Virus record (IMG/VR): IMGVR_UViG_2711768053_000004
Location: 1 to 11,868 of that record
Source of the DNA: a virus
Taxonomy: Duplodnaviria > Heunggongvirae > Uroviricota > Caudoviricetes
Reading direction: 5' to 3' (one strand)
Length of the DNA: 11,868 nt
The position numbers were made by a program, and so were the translations under genes. The notes beneath the pieces were generated by a model, which did no database searches, had not been told where the DNA came from, and was given only the letters and a program-made list of their open reading frames with translations. Positions 2,268 to 9,828 of this stretch are shown here, one piece after another (position 1 is the first letter of the stretch; the number at the start of each line of letters is the position of its first letter).

Positions 2268-2420
2268 TTAACGTTTTTCAACTTCGTAGGCTAAATACGC
2301 TGAAAGCTCTGTGTTTCCCTGCCTGATGTGCAGCTCGCATAGCGAACCGCGAACCATCCAGACAAATATCAGAATGGTGATGCAAACCACCACCAGACAA
2401 AACACATAGCTCCTTCGCAT
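2268..2420 (-). CDS. hok: Hok/Gef-family type I toxin (50 aa, single transmembrane helix)
   Basis: Hand translation of the minus strand: MRRSYVFCLVVVCITILIFVWMVRGSLCELHIRQGNTELSAYLAYEVEKR. Carries the Hok signature (hydrophobic N-terminal helix, R-x-SLCE-x-R, AYE near the C-terminus). SD GGGGG lies 5 nt before the ATG. Below the 60-aa cutoff of the supplied ORF track. Confidence 0.8.
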   Translation of the reverse strand: MRRSYVFCLVVVCITILIFVWMVRGSLCELHIRQGNTELSAYLAYEVEKR

Positions 2421-2478
2421 TACAGCCCCCTGTTAGTTGATTTCTTACTGTTAAGAGGCTAATCTTTATGTGTCGCAT
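2278..2478 (-). CDS. mok: Mok-like overlapping reading frame (translational coupler for hok)
   Basis: 66-aa ORF in a different frame that starts 58 nt upstream of hok (ATG at 2476-2478, GAGG about 9 nt upstream) and overlaps nearly all of hok. This is the hok/mok arrangement known from plasmid R1 and chromosomal hok loci. Confidence 0.5.
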   Translation of the reverse strand: MRHIKISLLTVRNQLTGGCNAKELCVLSGGGLHHHSDICLDGSRFAMRAAHQAGKHRAFSVFSLRS

Positions 2479-2540
2479 ACAGAATGCCTCAGATTAATGT
2501 TAAGCGTCTTGCCGGACGCGTAATGTTAACTGGGGCTTTT
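2472..2540 (+). ncRNA. sok: Putative Sok-like antisense RNA (approximate bounds)
   Basis: Inferred from hok/mok architecture. A plus-strand promoter candidate, TTGATT (2437-2442) - 17 bp - TAATCT (2460-2465), would start an antisense transcript across the mok initiation region. A short hairpin GCGTC-ttgccg-GACGC sits at about 2503-2519. The -10 is weak and the 3' end is undefined. Confidence 0.3.
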
Positions 2541-2711
2541 CTCTATCTGCCGTTGGTGTTCATGCCCGAGGCAGATAGCCTCAAGCACCCGCAGCAATTC
2601 TACTTAACTCTCCTTTTCCCGCAAACCGTTTTTATCCCCAGCGGCAAATCGAATACACCACCAGCGCCACCGCCATCGCAATTCCTACCGTTGTGAATGC
2701 TTCAGGCCAGG

Positions 2712-3056
2712 TCATCGTAAAATATCCTCCGCGCTTATCAGTCCGTTCCGCTCCAGATAACTCATCGCCTTATCCGGTAATTTGCAGTCTGGCTTCGCTT
2801 TCCTCAGTTGCCAGGTTAACTGCTTTACCAGCATGGTTAACTCATCGACCAGACGCTGATATCCCACTGGTTTGTATTCATGCAATTTACCGGCTGGCTC
2901 TGCTGCCAGCGATACCAGTGCGATTTCCAGAACAGCAATATCCATCTTATATGTGCGGATGATGTCATGGTCGATTGTGCCCGGTATGCACAGTCTCTGT
3001 GCTTCAATAGTCTCCTCTGCGTGAGCTATTAACTGCTCTCTGGTAAAAGTCGTCAT
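2712..3056 (-). CDS. hypothetical phage protein (114 aa)
   Basis: ATG at 3054-3056 overlaps the TGA of the upstream HNH gene (ATGA overlap), indicating translational coupling. No family recognised. Confidence 0.6.
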
Positions 3057-3418
3057 GCCGTAGCCCCTTCTTGATATTTTTCAAACCAGAACACAACCGG
3101 ATCAGATTTCATTTCAACCAATCCCATACGAACCAGCGCTTTGCCTTTTCCGGACGCAAGGAATTCACGACGACCATCACTGATAATTCGCCGATAATCT
3201 TCCAGGCTACTGCAATGCTTGTGCAGGTTGCATGGGTGGCATGCCGGAACCATGTTGGATATATCGTCACGCTCCTGGTGAAGCATATTTCCAGCAAAAC
3301 GAATGACCGGTTTTACATGGTCTGCATGCCACTTTTCGCCAAGTTCGCAGCCGCAATAAGCACAGCGACCGCCGAACTTCATGCGCAGCTCTGCACGTTG
3401 TTTTTTCGTCAGTGCCAT
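3053..3418 (-). CDS. HNH endonuclease (121 aa)
   Basis: Motifs CAYCGC...WHADHVKP...N...CHPCNLHKH (CxxC / HxDH / N / H / CxxC). The ORF track starts at 3508, but the internal ATG at 3416-3418 has a good SD (AAGGAAA) and sits 2 nt after the stop of the upstream small ORF, so it is the preferred start. Confidence 0.75.
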
Positions 3419-3638: not shown

Positions 3639-3732
3639 TCATTACCGCCCTTTCGGGCGGCCTCCTGATGATTTGAGGGTGAAGGAATCCCTCCGGTTAA
3701 GGATTAAATTTTATTTACAACACTAAATTTAA

Positions 3733-4257
3733 TTATTCAGGCGCGCGAATCTGTTCCGCACAATGCAATAATGCTTCTGTCACTTCCTTAAGCGTTACGG
3801 TATCGGCATCATCCAGTCCTGCAACTTTTGCGTGCCTGACAAACGCCGCGCGAAGCTCGTTAAACGCCACCGCCCGTACATCAGCCAGGAAAGCATCTGT
3901 AGCCTGGGTTTGCGGCATACCTCCGTCTGTTGCGCAGATATACGCATCAGATATTTCATCCTGCTCGCCATTAAACACATAGCAACTCTGTACGATAAAT
4001 TTATTCAGCCGCGCATTCTCCGCCGCCAGCGTCATGCGTTCTTTCTCAAGTCGGAAAATTTCTGTCACGTATTTGGCGTTTTCACCCCCCTTGATTAACT
4101 CGTTAATTCGTTTGCTTTTAATTTCCAGTTCATCCAGCAGTTCCAGCACAACCTGAGGTGTGGCTTTCATACGAAATGCCAGCAATTTTTGTGGTGTGGC
4201 TGCTATTTTTATTGCTTCTGCCGCCCCACGCAGTGCCTGATAGTCAATCTTGCTCAC
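3733..4257 (-). CDS. hypothetical phage protein (174 aa), possibly Ead/Ea22-like
   Basis: GTG start at 4257 with strong SD (AAGGAG, 7-nt spacing). Central coiled-coil-like region. The family name is a weak guess from the N-terminal motif MSKIDYQALRGAAEA. Confidence 0.6.
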   Translation of the reverse strand: MSKIDYQALRGAAEAIKIAATPQKLLAFRMKATPQVVLELLDELEIKSKRINELIKGGENAKYVTEIFRLEKERMTLAAENARLNKFIVQSCYVFNGEQDEISDAYICATDGGMPQTQATDAFLADVRAVAFNELRAAFVRHAKVAGLDDADTVTLKEVTEALLHCAEQIRAPE

Positions 4258-4510
4258 TGGTTGTCTCCTTTTTCCATGTTTTCAGACTTTCACCACAGAA
4301 CGGGCAAAATGAGACTCGAATAGGTGATTTAGAAAATTCACCGGAACGCAACATCACCAAATCAGGGGCGCGAGTTAAATTCTCATTCCAGATTTTGTAT
4401 ATCAGCAGACCTTTTCGCATCGTGTATTCAGCATCATGCTCAAGGGACTTTGCCAGTGCTGCACATGGTTCTATCTTGTTGCCCTTAACCTGGCATTTTG
4501 ATTCACTCAC
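4244..4510 (-). CDS. small Cys-rich (putative zinc-ribbon) protein, 88 aa
   Basis: GTG start at 4508-4510 overlaps the TGA of the upstream gene (GTGA), with AGGAGG 7 nt upstream. Cys pairs C-x9-C near the N-terminus and CPFC near the C-terminus. Confidence 0.5.
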   Translation of the reverse strand: MSESKCQVKGNKIEPCAALAKSLEHDAEYTMRKGLLIYKIWNENLTRAPDLVMLRSGEFSKSPIRVSFCPFCGESLKTWKKETTSEQD

Positions 4511-7307: not shown

Positions 7308-7751
7308 AACGTACATAAACATCACGCATTCGCAACAAGACTTAAGTCAGAAATGGATAGAAAAAACAAATCCATCAAAGACTTAAGCTTATCTACGGGC
7401 GTCACATACGAAATGGCGCGACGCTACACCCTAGGTACAGCTAAACCCCGCGACGAAAAACTCGAACGAATAGCAGAATTTCTGGGAGTTGAACCTGCAT
7501 GGCTGGAATACGGTCAGCCAACAGAGAAAGGAATTGAACCAGCAGAAGATTCATTTGTAACACAAAGATCTGGTGCCAATAGCAATGGCGAATTTACTGA
7601 GTTAAGTGAAGATGAAAAGCGGCTGATACGAACGTTTCGGGAGTTTCCGCCAGTTGAAGCCAGGAATATGCTTCTGGCTTTTGAGATGAGACTCAAGAAA
7701 CTTTACGATTTCTACGAGAAATACGCCAGCACCCCACCACCTTCTGAGTGA
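7299..7751 (+). CDS. Prophage repressor, DicA/RacR-like (XRE-family HTH)
   Basis: N-terminal HTH (ATRLKSEMDRKNKSIKDLSLSTGVTYEMARRYTLGTAKPRDEKLERIAEFLGVEPAWLEYG) plus a C-terminal helical domain. Divergent from the Cro-like gene and followed by a strong terminator. Start is ambiguous: TTG 7242 (ORF track), ATG 7263 or ATG 7299. None has an SD, so the mRNA may be leaderless. Confidence 0.75.
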   Translation: MVENVHKHHAFATRLKSEMDRKNKSIKDLSLSTGVTYEMARRYTLGTAKPRDEKLERIAEFLGVEPAWLEYGQPTEKGIEPAEDSFVTQRSGANSNGEFTELSEDEKRLIRTFREFPPVEARNMLLAFEMRLKKLYDFYEKYASTPPPSE

Positions 7752-7767
7752 CTTTATCTGTTAACAC

Positions 7768-7792
7768 CCCCCGGCATTGCCGGGTTTTTTTT
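7768..7792 (+). terminator. Rho-independent terminator after the repressor gene
   Basis: CCCGGC-att-GCCGGG (7770-7784) followed by eight T (7785-7792), 18 nt after the repressor stop. Confidence 0.8.
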
Positions 7793-7846: not shown

Positions 7847-7874
7847 TTGACACATCTACTTCAAGTAGTATCAT
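7847..7874 (+). promoter_or_regulatory. pL-like early promoter with embedded operator
   Basis: -35 TTGACA (7847-7852), 16-bp spacer, -10 TATCAT (7869-7874). The spacer contains the perfect palindrome CTACTT-c-AAGTAG (7856-7868), which matches the CTAC-N5-GTAG sites in the cro/repressor intergenic region. Confidence 0.55.
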
Positions 7875-8263: not shown

Positions 8264-8674
8264 ATGCAGAAACGAGAACCCGTCATCATCGCGCCAGACT
8301 ATACCGATGATGAAATTTACGAATGGATGTGCGGGAAGATACGCGCCATTAATGACATGAAGCAGGCTGCTGACTACAAAGAGCGCCTCTCTAAAGAACT
8401 GGCATCAGCGGAGCAAGATATTACCACTCTGGCAAAAAGAGCGGCATTAAACGTTTCGCGAGTGATTGCAAACTACCGACCGATGAGGTTGACGATGAAT
8501 GAAACAGAACTTAAACACGTTATTGCCTTGCTTCTGGAAGATGCAAAACGCTTACATGAACTGGAACCCAATGCAGGCACAGAGGCCCGCATTTGGTTAG
8601 CAAAAAAATGCCTGGATAGTAAAAGTTTTCAGAAAGAAATAACAATCAGTTTTGAGAATTCGCCTCATCTATGA
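8264..8674 (+). CDS. hypothetical early protein (136 aa)
   Basis: ATG at 8264 with GAGGA at about 9-nt spacing. No family recognised. Confidence 0.6.
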   Translation: MQKREPVIIAPDYTDDEIYEWMCGKIRAINDMKQAADYKERLSKELASAEQDITTLAKRAALNVSRVIANYRPMRLTMNETELKHVIALLLEDAKRLHELEPNAGTEARIWLAKKCLDSKSFQKEITISFENSPHL

Positions 8675-8876
8675 ATTGTTGAATCAGGTTTGCTAATTCA
8701 GTGGCATGTTTATCACCTGTGCTTTTTAAAGCATCTGTTACACAATCTGAGCGAAGTTCTGGCGGAAGTCTTGTTGCCATCAAAGCTATCGCGAGCTTAA
8801 TGGCTCTTAATTCGGCATTTATTCCATCATGGGATAAATCATTATTAATAGTGGTTTTTATTGTGTTCAAAATCAC
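8646..8876 (-). CDS. hypothetical small protein (74-76 aa), convergent to the plus-strand operon
   Basis: AT-rich ORF. On the minus strand AGGAGG is followed by GTG with no spacer and by TTG at 6-nt spacing, so a TTG start at 8868-8870 is plausible. Its 3' end overlaps the 136-aa gene by 29 nt. Could be spurious. Confidence 0.3.
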   Translation of the reverse strand: MILNTIKTTINNDLSHDGINAELRAIKLAIALMATRLPPELRSDCVTDALKSTGDKHATELANLIQQFIDEANSQN

Positions 8877-9189
8877 CCTCCTGAGGGTTGTTAATTAAGG
8901 AGTTCTCCACGGGTGAGGCGGAGTGCGTGCGCCGGACACGGGTGAGCATCCGGCACTGGCAGTTTACTGAAAGGATATATCCCTGAAAAGTCAGGGCATA
9001 ACACGGAAGCGCACAGCGAAGTCATTCCTCCCTTTGTTGTGTACCACTGACATCTTCGTCTGTGCGCTTCCGGTTGTGGCACTCCGCGAAATGGCGCGGC
9101 GGTAAGTATGGCGGGGTTATCCTTACCCCATTAGTGGCACCGGGTTGTCAGGTTGACCATACGCCTGAGTGACAACCCCGCTACAACAA

Positions 9190-9256
9190 CCCATGGTGGT
9201 TACCTTTTGGCGGGTATCCGTTTTTTTTGTTTTCCCTTGTGATACCCGCCCTTTTT
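9190..9256 (+). ncRNA. dicF: DicF-like small RNA (approximate 5' end) with intrinsic terminator
   Basis: Sequence UGGUGGUUACCUUUUGGCGGGUAUC...GAUACCCGCCCUUUUU resembles E. coli DicF (UGGUGACGUUUGGCGGUAUC...CCGCCC, from memory). Terminator stem GGCGGGTATC (9209-9218) / GATACCCGCC (9241-9250) followed by a T-run (9252-9256). Lies immediately upstream of dicB, as in the Qin dicB operon. Confidence 0.55.
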
Positions 9257-9439
9257 AAAGTGAATTTTGTGATGCGGTGAATGCGGCTCAGCGCACGCGG
9301 AACAGTTAAAAAGGCCAGTTGACTTCCGTATTGGTTCTTATGGGTGGGTTCTCTGTATCCGGCGTTAATTGTTAACTGGTTAACGTCACCTGGAGGCACC
9401 AGGCACCGTATCACAAAATTCATTGTTGAGGACGCGATA

Positions 9440-9628
9440 ATGGAAACGTTATTACCAAACGTTAATACGTCTGAAGGTTGTTTTGAAATTGGTGTCAAAA
9501 TCAGTAACCCTGCATTTACTGAAGATGCCATTAATAAGAGAAAACACGAACGGGAGTTATTAAATAAAATATGCATTGTTTCAATGCTGGCCCGTTTACG
9601 TCTGATGCAAAAAGGATACTGGCAATGA
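9440..9628 (+). CDS. dicB: Cell division inhibitor DicB (62 aa)
   Basis: Translation METLLPNVNTSEGCFEIGVKISNPAFTEDAINKRKHERELLNKICIVSMLARLRLMQKGYWQ is near-identical to my recollection of E. coli K-12 DicB. ATG at 9440 with GAGGA about 8 nt upstream. The 5' extension in the ORF track (9344) is not supported. Confidence 0.8.
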   Translation: METLLPNVNTSEGCFEIGVKISNPAFTEDAINKRKHERELLNKICIVSMLARLRLMQKGYWQ

Positions 9629-9828
9629 ATACTGCTATTGCCCTCACTCTGACTGTTTTTCTTAATACTGGCGAGCCTGTTGACATGGTTATTGACATTT
9701 ACGGTTCAATGAAAGAATGCATGGCTGCCGCAGCAGAACAAAAAATTCCCGGTAACTGCTATCCGGTCGATAAAGTTATTCACATGGACAATAACGAAAT
9801 CCCGGCAGGACTTAAAACAGCACCGTAA
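9625..9828 (+). CDS. YdfD-like small protein (67 aa, hydrophobic N-terminus; putative lysis/toxic protein)
   Basis: ATG at 9625-9627 overlaps the dicB TGA (ATGA), with AAGGA at 7-nt spacing. Sequence begins MNTAIALTLTVFLNTGEPVD. Position after dicB matches Qin ydfD. Confidence 0.6.
   Translation: MNTAIALTLTVFLNTGEPVDMVIDIYGSMKECMAAAAEQKIPGNCYPVDKVIHMDNNEIPAGLKTAP

Follow-up and report, generated by a model that had tools for sequence, protein, structure and literature searches.

Leader-derived RNAs that are processed into small structured products are known from temperate phages, as with the CI RNA of P4 and the c4 RNA of P1 and P7, and the T4 tRNA cluster holds stable 'species 1/2' RNAs among its tRNA genes. 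DicF was among the first bacterial regulatory RNAs found. Its functional 53-nt form is produced by termination at the dicF terminator (PMC5069750, PMC9438474); both articles, citing Faubladier 1990, report that the 5' end is RNase E-dependent and that the 3' end arises by termination or by RNase III, and the roughly 340 nt before dicF in Escherichia coli K-12 are described there only as a 'long untranslated region' or 'ydfC 3' UTR' (untranslated region). MicL, as cited in PMC9438474, has stem-loops that direct precise RNase E processing of the small RNA (sRNA), and the put element of phage HK022 is about 70 nt long, with two stem-loops (stem I with a triplex, and stem II) meeting at a bifurcation (PMC9378689). 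Here we analyse positions 8877-9190 of an 11,868-nt stretch of Caudoviricetes DNA (IMG/VR record IMGVR_UViG_2711768053_000004; the whole stretch is called the window), an interval that lies directly 5' of a terminator hairpin at the DicF position, and describe within it module C (9073-9187, plus strand), a stem-closed four-helix RNA domain of ~115 nt with a probable pseudoknot.

Module C is a genuine structured RNA on the plus strand, and it is apparently undescribed: we found no structured element upstream of dicF in the searched literature, outside which lie older papers on P1 'dicF-like' homology, and a 2026 prophage sRNA survey that discusses STnc100 does not mention the region. In K-12, the ydfC-dicF spacer contains an RNA domain, supported by covariation and with a probable pseudoknot, for which Rfam has no family. 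Like the P4 CI, P1/P7 c4 and T4 species 1/2 RNAs, module C is a small structured RNA of phage early or tRNA-cluster transcripts, and neither a sequence nor a model match relates it to them (the Rfam C4 family was not hit in scans of the window); we identified no complementary target sites of the kind that an immunity mechanism would use. It shares with 3'ETS-leuZ, MicL and DicF as a 'ydfC 3' UTR' sRNA the order of a folded body, a short A/U-rich single strand and a terminator-ended sRNA (PMC9438474). Its folded body differs in that it is not a tRNA, is larger, has a probable pseudoknot and keeps its loops beyond what a guide would need, and cleavage is here something we infer.

A covarying RNA domain on the plus strand

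The original prediction had described a hairpin-dense interval that includes a 13-bp perfect inverted repeat, and sequence reading and a repeat finder located all of the inverted repeats that it listed. The strongly supported element proved to be the right-hand ~115 nt instead, and the 13-bp repeat belongs to a neighbouring module that carries little covariation. The further suggestion of a second structured RNA stands for this right-hand part, a covarying domain with compensatory changes whose arms are the listed hairpins CCGCG/CGCGG (9084-9099), GGGGT/ACCCC (9113-9129) and GGGTTGTCA/TGACAACCC (9142-9178). An 8-bp closing stem, P1 (9073-9080/9180-9187), encloses hairpin P2 (9084-9088/9095-9099, loop AAAUGG), helix P3a (9100-9103/9139-9142), hairpin P3 (9113-9117/9125-9129), whose stem varies freely in sequence and length and whose loop stays CU-rich (UCCUU, CUCC), and the long hairpin P4 (9143-9153 with 9163-9165 and 9170-9177). 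A probable 6-bp pseudoknot, which the original prediction did not include, pairs GUAUGG (9106-9111) with CCAUAC (9157-9162) in the P4 loop.

We collected homologues with four patterns: an exact P4-loop pattern on viral and genome collections, a P2/J region pattern, a gapped pattern on metagenomes and a DicF pattern. In a plain MAFFT alignment of 43 sequences, the helices that we had read by eye had 94.8% of their cells paired and 14 pairs changed on both sides, which none of 500 shuffles attained; a fourth helix (CGGU/ACCG), with changes from U-A to C-G, came from RNAalifold. The covariance model R1 matched 9067-9194 with 143.9 bits and found one copy per locus. Across the 97 distinct sequences among the 100 matches in the R1 alignment, 97.3% of 3684 pair cells were paired and 19 of 38 pairs had changed on both sides, again with 0 of 500 shuffles reaching this value; sliding the partners by 1-3 columns as a control left 32-54% paired. 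This alignment was fitted to the model, and the MAFFT result shows that the signal is not due to the fitting; many homologues are closely related, so that the shuffle controls overstate their independence. Both-side changes affect 7 of the 8 pairs of the closing stem, indicating that this stem is selected.

At the variable pair of the pseudoknot, 146 distinct sequences have U-A (128), C-G (10) or U.G (5) and never C.A, and the C-G state is present in P1-type, divergent P1-like and Qin-type backgrounds. The six-base complementarity of two near-invariant segments, with one position that seems to have covaried in two or three independent events, makes the pseudoknot probable.

The interval also folds far better than shuffled sequence on both strands, a check that the original prediction had called for: positions 8877-9260 reach -159.3 kcal/mol on the plus strand against -129.0 +/- 5.5 for dinucleotide shuffles (z = -5.5), and the minus strand reaches z = -6.3. 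Strand is decided by G.U pairs. Of 97 sequences, 94 have U.G at one P4 pair, and 42-49 have G.U or U.G at three further pairs; read on the opposite strand, or in DNA, such pairs would become A.C mismatches, which places the structure of module C on the plus strand. A role for the minus strand, as 5' UTR or promoter of the open reading frame (ORF) at 8646-8876, or for the DNA itself as a single-strand initiation or protein-binding site, would draw on the good minus-strand fold, on the ribosome-binding site (RBS) of that ORF, which adjoins the interval, and on an A.C mismatch of module B in most relatives that becomes G.U on the minus strand. Against it stand the many plus-strand G.U pairs of module C and the balance of 21 G.U to 6 A.C in modules A and B, which weakly favours the plus strand. 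The modules moreover persist without the antisense ORF in K-12, phage cdtI and phage P1, and 8877-9190 contains no promoter-like site on either strand. We rejected such a role on the G.U pattern and the lack of promoter-like sites, and give it scarcely any credence.

The covariance-model scan matched no known RNA family. The sole hit in the whole window at Rfam 15 gathering thresholds is sok (2418-2590), a scan of 8600-9500 at an expectation value (E) <= 10 returned nothing inside 8877-9190, and the K-12 ydfC-dicF spacer at E <= 1 matched nothing besides DicF and STnc100. ARAGORN found 0 tRNA or transfer-messenger RNA genes in the window, where Rfam gave no tRNA-clan match at E <= 10, and the resemblance of module C to tRNA is confined to a stem-closed multi-helix junction. 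A junction and pseudoknot with invariant unpaired nucleotides would also suit a new self-cleaving ribozyme that cuts the DicF unit off from the mRNA before it, and small ribozymes are known beside phage tRNA genes. No known ribozyme family in Rfam matches, we can name no cleavage-site signature, and the DicF 5' end is reported to be RNase E-dependent (PMC5069750); we consider a ribozyme very improbable.

Conservation and modular make-up

Of 5426 complete E. coli genomes, 4301 match the 314-nt stretch, with identities that are mostly 80-90% and up to 8 places per genome, and no annotated feature lies under the match in the 20 best records listed. Conservation well outside the strain, on which the original prediction had made its case depend, is thus plain: the interval occurs in about four fifths of complete E. 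coli genomes, including K-12 Qin, and the domain of module C also in phage P1 and in prophages of Citrobacter, Trabulsiella, Erwinia and Izhakiella. Besides Escherichia, these four genera are among the module C hosts that genome records name, with Erwinia tracheiphila as the Erwinia species. The K-12 match is the ydfC-dicF spacer of Qin, with about 90% identity from ~8890 to ~9190 and unalignable flanks.

Phage records cover differing parts of the query (1-91, 9-202, 197-312 and 208-304), and in most of the loci retrieved by pattern the homology has sharp limits, at 9073-9191 or 9084-9180. The interval therefore consists of three separately mobile modules, which we delimit as A (~8893-8996), B (9004-9072) and C (9073-9187). 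What had been taken for one hairpin-dense element has real hairpins, and resolves into these modules plus the RBS of an antisense ORF. The whole leader reads as a string of stem-closed units: module B, module C, the hairpin at the DicF position and an STnc100-like element.

Exchangeable cassettes in leaders and tRNA arrays

In several leaders of the type found in phage cdtI, the same flanks and closing stem (GUUGUGGU...ACCACAAC) enclose a different 119-nt interior, which we call C' (L224 5075-5205; also L226, L245 and L246). C' is predicted to fold as a four-way junction in which the loop of the first hairpin is complementary to that of the last (GCUGAUC/GAUCAGC), and no Rfam family matches it. 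Of the 5426 E. coli genomes, 845 carry C'; 237 of its places are on plasmids, and the plasmids listed are P1-like and about 85-100 kb in size. R1 gives weak matches to C'-type cassettes, which come from the shared closing stem and first hairpin.

One P1-like plasmid (L255, NZ_CP028585.2) carries three C'-type cassettes (1193-1327, 1389-1443 and 1622-1721) between tRNA-Asn/Thr and tRNA-Ser, and a fourth cassette of the same closing-stem type (149-261) upstream of a DicF-like terminator. The hairpins of the C'-type copies show compensatory differences from one another, and an Rfam scan of the plasmid returned nothing for C'. Because C' lies among tRNA genes and the module C unit of phage P1 is self-contained (see below), the cassettes behave like RNA genes. 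Exchangeable cassettes, some of them among phage tRNA genes, point to a wider uncatalogued phage RNA family. The plasmid cassettes are separated by unannotated tRNA-like hairpins (GGTAAGGG...CCCTTACC), one of which has a T-loop-like motif, GGTTCGAATCC.

The leader of dicB in the window (9249-9472, plus strand) resembles STnc100 (Rfam RF02076), with 34.1 bits against a gathering score of 47. It has an 11-bp closing stem (9269-9279/9404-9414) and begins GGUGAAUGCGG, resembling C'. STnc100, which is related to PasD (bioRxiv 10.64898/2026.05.13.724894), and module C are both prophage early-leader RNAs with cores unrelated in sequence, and at E <= 10 the STnc100 model did not match module C. In architecture, STnc100 and the stem-closed phage leader RNAs described here may form one superfamily.

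Exchange of cores bears on the idea that module C is a stable noncoding RNA acting in trans, or a decoy, that binds a host or phage factor or purine-rich RNA; DicF would merely be co-transcribed, and each of the exchangeable cores (C, C' and others) would bring a specificity of its own. The compact closed fold with near-invariant loops fits this idea, as do the P3 loop, which keeps its CU-rich, anti-Shine-Dalgarno-like composition while the stem varies, the substitution of same-stem cassettes with different cores at the same site, the tandem cassettes among tRNA genes and the spread of C' through 845 genomes. A CU-rich loop matches any Shine-Dalgarno sequence, however, so that complementarity cannot discriminate. 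We consider a trans-acting role of this kind unlikely as the explanation; it is compatible with excision of the cassette from the transcript, the proposal set out below.

Coupling to a terminator at the DicF position

A hairpin with a T run follows within 140 nt downstream of module C in 67 of 71 distinct sequences, mostly 30-60 nt away; the stems have about -13 to -22 kcal/mol and 5-7 U. Module C in turn lies within 260 nt upstream of 161 of 178 sites that match the DicF core pattern, and among 31 loci found by the DicF pattern alone each distinct upstream region that lacks C has C' in the same closing stem or is an unrelated chance match. In the window, module C is followed by a single-stranded linker, AACCCAUGGUGGUUACCUUUU (9188-9208, plus strand), the positional equivalent of the K-12 stretch that contains the DicF 5' end, and then by the terminator hairpin GGCGGGUAUC/GAUACCCGCC (9209-9218/9241-9250, plus strand), whose T run is at 9252-9256. 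The K-12 closing stem has its last base at L002 4366 and the dicF annotation begins at 4383, leaving a 16-nt linker.

The name 'DicF-like', given earlier to this hairpin, is apt for its position, its terminator and its flanks, which are homologous to those of K-12 dicF, and goes too far as a family assignment: 9209-9256 had no Rfam DicF match at E <= 10 (scans of 8600-9500 and 9170-9275), against 76.7 bits for the K-12 dicF control and a membership cut-off of >= 48 bits (RF00039). The loop and seed differ from those of K-12 dicF and the flanks are homologous. Judged from its sequence, 9209-9256 is probably an allelic sRNA with other targets; the equivalent position in the near-identical prophage of strain RM8082 has no RefSeq noncoding RNA annotation.

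The same arrangement recurs outside Qin-like prophages. In phage P1, about 25 nt separate the -10 element of the C1-controlled Pban promoters from the start of module C (L003 ~2990-3100), and downstream follow a strong terminator in the annotated 'dicF-like region', tRNA genes, tciABC and ban; module C and the terminator form a self-contained unit of about 180 nt. Pban is the annotated C1-controlled promoter of ban, which lies 2.6 kb downstream. In phage cdtI, module C lies about 290 nt after a promoter (TTGACA-16-CATAAT, L134 3184-3211) that follows cI and its terminator, and beyond the DicF-type terminator come co-oriented early genes down to xis. A long inverted repeat (ACAAAACAGAGAAGA.../...TCTTCTCTGTTTTGT) around about 55 nt stands 3' of the DicF terminator in cdtI (L134 ~3676-3775) and is conserved in cdtI-type phages; in L053 and L074 a relative of this element lies directly 3' of module C, with no DicF hairpin between.

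A covarying domain directly upstream of an intrinsic terminator, which is what module C is, recalls a ligand-sensing riboswitch with the DicF terminator as its expression platform, and in most contexts the multi-helix pseudoknotted domain lies 14-25 nt upstream of the terminator. Thermodynamic folding of the window, K-12, cdtI and P1 sequences gave no mutually exclusive terminator and anti-terminator pairing: we saw no alternative pairing, and in each of the four context types the terminator was the hairpin of minimum free energy whether the 3' part of the domain was included or not. It folds alike with or without the upstream sequence, so that nothing suggests a switch. Terminators also differ in sequence between P1 and lambdoid phages without a matching change in the domain, C'-type cassettes occur without terminators, and no Rfam riboswitch matches. 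We give a riboswitch very little weight. The 5' strand of P3, GGCGGGGUUAUC, is similar to the 5' arm of the terminator, GGCGGGUAUC; considered as a basis for switching, this likeness was rejected since it is not conserved in K-12, cdtI or P1.

A module between promoter and terminator could instead serve read-through. HK022 put suppresses termination in cis through the beta' zinc-binding domain of RNA polymerase. As a cis-acting, factor-independent processive antiterminator, like HK022 put or Bacillus EAR, nascent module C would bind the elongating RNA polymerase and carry part of the transcription past the DicF-type terminator and later terminators to dicB, the recombination genes, xis and int, and in P1 to the tRNAs, tci and ban. 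Like put, module C lies on the sense strand of an early operon, downstream of an early promoter and upstream of terminators (P1, cdtI, and the window with its promoter at 7847-7874); in 4 of 4 annotated contexts the operon is repressor-controlled, the terminator intrinsic and the genes beyond it co-oriented. The P1 copy is promoter-proximal, about 25 nt after the Pban -10 element, the cdtI copy follows its near-consensus promoter, behind cI, by about 290 nt, and in the window Pfam detected no N-like antiterminator protein between the promoter and module C. A conserved host machine as the recognised partner would be in keeping with unpaired nucleotides that do not vary, and control of read-through by module C, if it exists, would account for the way in which transcription of an N-less early operon gets past a strong terminator.

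The architecture of module C is nonetheless unlike that of put: about 115 nt, four helices and a probable pseudoknot, stem-closed and in one copy per phage, against two stem-loops (PMC9378689). Homology to put was an initial lead, from a resemblance in CGGGUU..CAGG(A/U)UGA, and was rejected: with filters off and at E <= 10, R1 matched neither putL (L005 minus strand ~745-815) nor putR (L005 1960-2025) of HK022, blastn-short found one 9-mer, GCGCGGCGG, as the sequence shared by put and module C, and covariation pairs GUCA with a distal UGAC and not within a put-like apical hairpin. A put-like function is possible without membership of the put family. R1 found no second copy in the rightward operon of the window, and antitermination seems counter-productive directly before an sRNA whose 53-nt form needs that terminator (PMC5069750, PMC9438474). 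The C'-type cassettes between tRNA genes, up to three of them with no terminators after them, do not fit either. On balance we think antitermination improbable.

Proposed excision of the cassette and maturation of the sRNA

We tentatively propose, with limited confidence, that module C is an excised stem-closed RNA cassette whose 3' trailer is DicF. The proposal builds on the observed fold, strand, conservation, terminator coupling and exchangeability of the cassettes, and on the position of the K-12 DicF 5' end, 16 nt past the closing stem, an end reported to be RNase E-dependent (PMC5069750, PMC9438474). A processing platform for RNase III or RNase E, as the original prediction had considered, would fit this geometry. 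The interval would be a structured untranslated spacer of the early-left (dicB-type) operon, built of independent RNA modules. Module C would fold co-transcriptionally, its 8-bp closing stem joining the 5' and 3' ends, and would act like a tRNA body within a polycistronic precursor, leaving on its 3' side a short A/U-rich linker as the sole accessible sequence. An RNase E cut in this linker would create the 5' end of the DicF-type sRNA, which would end at the intrinsic terminator 20-60 nt on. On the 5' side, the long hairpin of module B probably marks the upstream limit or serves for entry, and it may be an RNase III-type stem. Processing would yield a defined DicF-type sRNA together with a cassette RNA of about 115 nt, the latter probably stable. 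The invariant loops and the pseudoknot suggest that the cassette probably also has a specific partner. If module C directs DicF maturation, this would explain precise excision of the sRNA from a polycistronic transcript.

Several points weigh against this proposal. About 50 unpaired or tertiary nucleotides of module C are nearly invariant, an invariance partly inflated by the gathering of homologues with exact patterns from conserved loops (each loop was still invariant when the other loop alone served as anchor), and together with the pseudoknot this is more than a mere processing guide needs, given that stem-loops suffice for MicL. L053 and L074 have module C and no DicF-type hairpin, and the C'-type cassettes of the tRNA array have neither an sRNA nor a terminator after them; DicF maturation is thus not the whole function. 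Module B is marginal as an RNase III stem, with a bulged ~18 bp and an A.C mismatch in most relatives. It also counts against the proposal that cleavage, a stable excised RNA and any role other than maturation are all inferred.

A broader claim is that module C, C' and the other same-stem cassettes form a new class of phage early-transcript RNA that acts on a conserved host machine, for example as a factor-independent, put-unrelated antiterminator, a decoy or a ligand sensor, with cores swapped between lambdoid and P1-like phages. We regard this as doubtful; if true, K-12 would have carried an unrecognised functional RNA beside dicF for decades.

Modules A and B

Module B (9004-9072, plus strand) is a long hairpin made of the 13-nt repeat CGGAAGCGCACAG/CTGTGCGCTTCCG (9004-9016/9060-9072; 100% complementary, 43 nt between the arms) and a further 5 bp (9017-9021/9054-9058), giving a stem of ~18 bp in total with a 1-nt bulge, U9059, and a 32-nt loop (9022-9053). 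We calculate that about 300 nt would contain a perfect 13-mer repeat within 120 nt about 5e-4 times by chance; the short 5-6 bp stems of the interval are each, taken alone, at chance level. The stem is kept in 36 distinct homologues, with a loop hypervariable in sequence and length (total 66-76 nt). Compensatory changes are few (9015-9061, G-C in 54 and A-U in 3; 9016-9060, G.U in 9), and most relatives have an A.C mismatch at 9006-9070. Set against the two turns or so (~20 bp) of largely uninterrupted helix expected for RNase III, module B offers 13 + 5 bp interrupted by a 1-nt bulge, to which most relatives add the A.C mismatch. The P3 apical loop of module C (9118-9124) and the module B loop (9022-9053) are pyrimidine-rich and anti-Shine-Dalgarno-like (UCCUU, CCUCC), a character kept in nearly all variants as the stems and the remaining loop vary.

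Module A (~8893-8996, plus strand) is a run of small hairpins conserved mainly in sequence, with little covariation. Hairpin A1 (8905-8910/8918-8923) is CUCCAC/GCGGAG in the window, with A.C at 8909-8919, and has GUGGAG in relatives; A2 (GCCGGA/UCCGGC, 8931-8936/8949-8954) and A3 (8956-8973) were recovered by RNAalifold and are almost invariant; A4 (CCCUGA/UCAGGG, 8981-8996), which the repeat finder also returned as CCCTGA/TCAGGG, has one compensatory change, to CUCUGA/UCAGAG. Alignment, as the original prediction had asked, yielded compensatory changes chiefly in module C, by both MAFFT and model alignments. A second prophage group has unrelated sequence in place of A1 that likewise forms a hairpin. 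In that group (L014, L030, L037 and relatives), an Arg-rich 20-codon ATG ORF, METNTLPRVVVRRTRIRIRH, occupies the equivalent of window ~8895-8960 and overlaps two hairpins; the prophage group of the window has no counterpart of it and no equivalent start codon.

Coding capacity and genomic setting

The interval holds no credible ORF, as had been supposed: the three mechanical ORFs are disrupted in most homologues by stops or non-triplet indels, being intact in 3 of 49 (8888-8986, plus strand), 8 of 55 (8891-9082, minus strand) and 29 of 87 (9062-9172, plus strand). We rejected a protein-coding role, since these ORFs are not conserved. The description of 8877-9190 as noncoding holds for most of it and fails for the first ~12 nt (8877-8888), which belong to a minus-strand ORF (8646-8876) and hold its Shine-Dalgarno sequence with a small hairpin. 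The translation start region of this ORF (8868-8888, minus strand) comprises AGGAGG at 8882-8877 and a GTG at 8876-8874 or TTG at 8870-8868, and the small hairpin ACCCTC/GAGGGT (8875-8888) overlaps the left edge of the interval, outside the conserved RNA modules. The ORF has 73-76 codons and a strong Shine-Dalgarno sequence, AGGAGG; it lies antisense inside the dicB-type operon and overlaps the 3' end of the plus-strand ORF 8264-8674. Its homologue in RM8082 is hypothetical protein WP_000202162.1, it has no Pfam family and no promoter-like site was found upstream of it, and K-12 Qin lacks it.

The window is a Qin-like lambdoid prophage, and its near-identical relative in strain RM8082 is integrated beside ompW. 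Annotation bore out the position first assigned to the interval, in a repressor-controlled early-left (dicB-type) operon directly 5' of the terminator at the DicF position. In plus-strand order, a helix-turn-helix repressor (Pfam HTH_3) ends at 7751 and is followed by a terminator downstream of it (7770-7784), a near-consensus promoter (TTGACA-16-TATCAT, 7847-7874), a DUF1391 (ydfA-like) gene with two small ORFs (to 8674; ORF list and Pfam) and, beyond the interval, dicB (9441-9628, Pfam DicB) and a DUF1482 gene (9571-9828, Pfam DUF1482), both on the plus strand; in the RM8082-type relative an exonuclease gene, xis and int come after the DUF1482 gene. Gene-orientation statistics from the mechanical ORFs were tried and proved uninformative. 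Elsewhere in the window, a full-length sok antitoxin RNA (2418-2590, minus strand; Rfam RF01794, 93.7 bits) indicates a hok/sok-type module in the prophage, and hokD is annotated at the corresponding place in RM8082.

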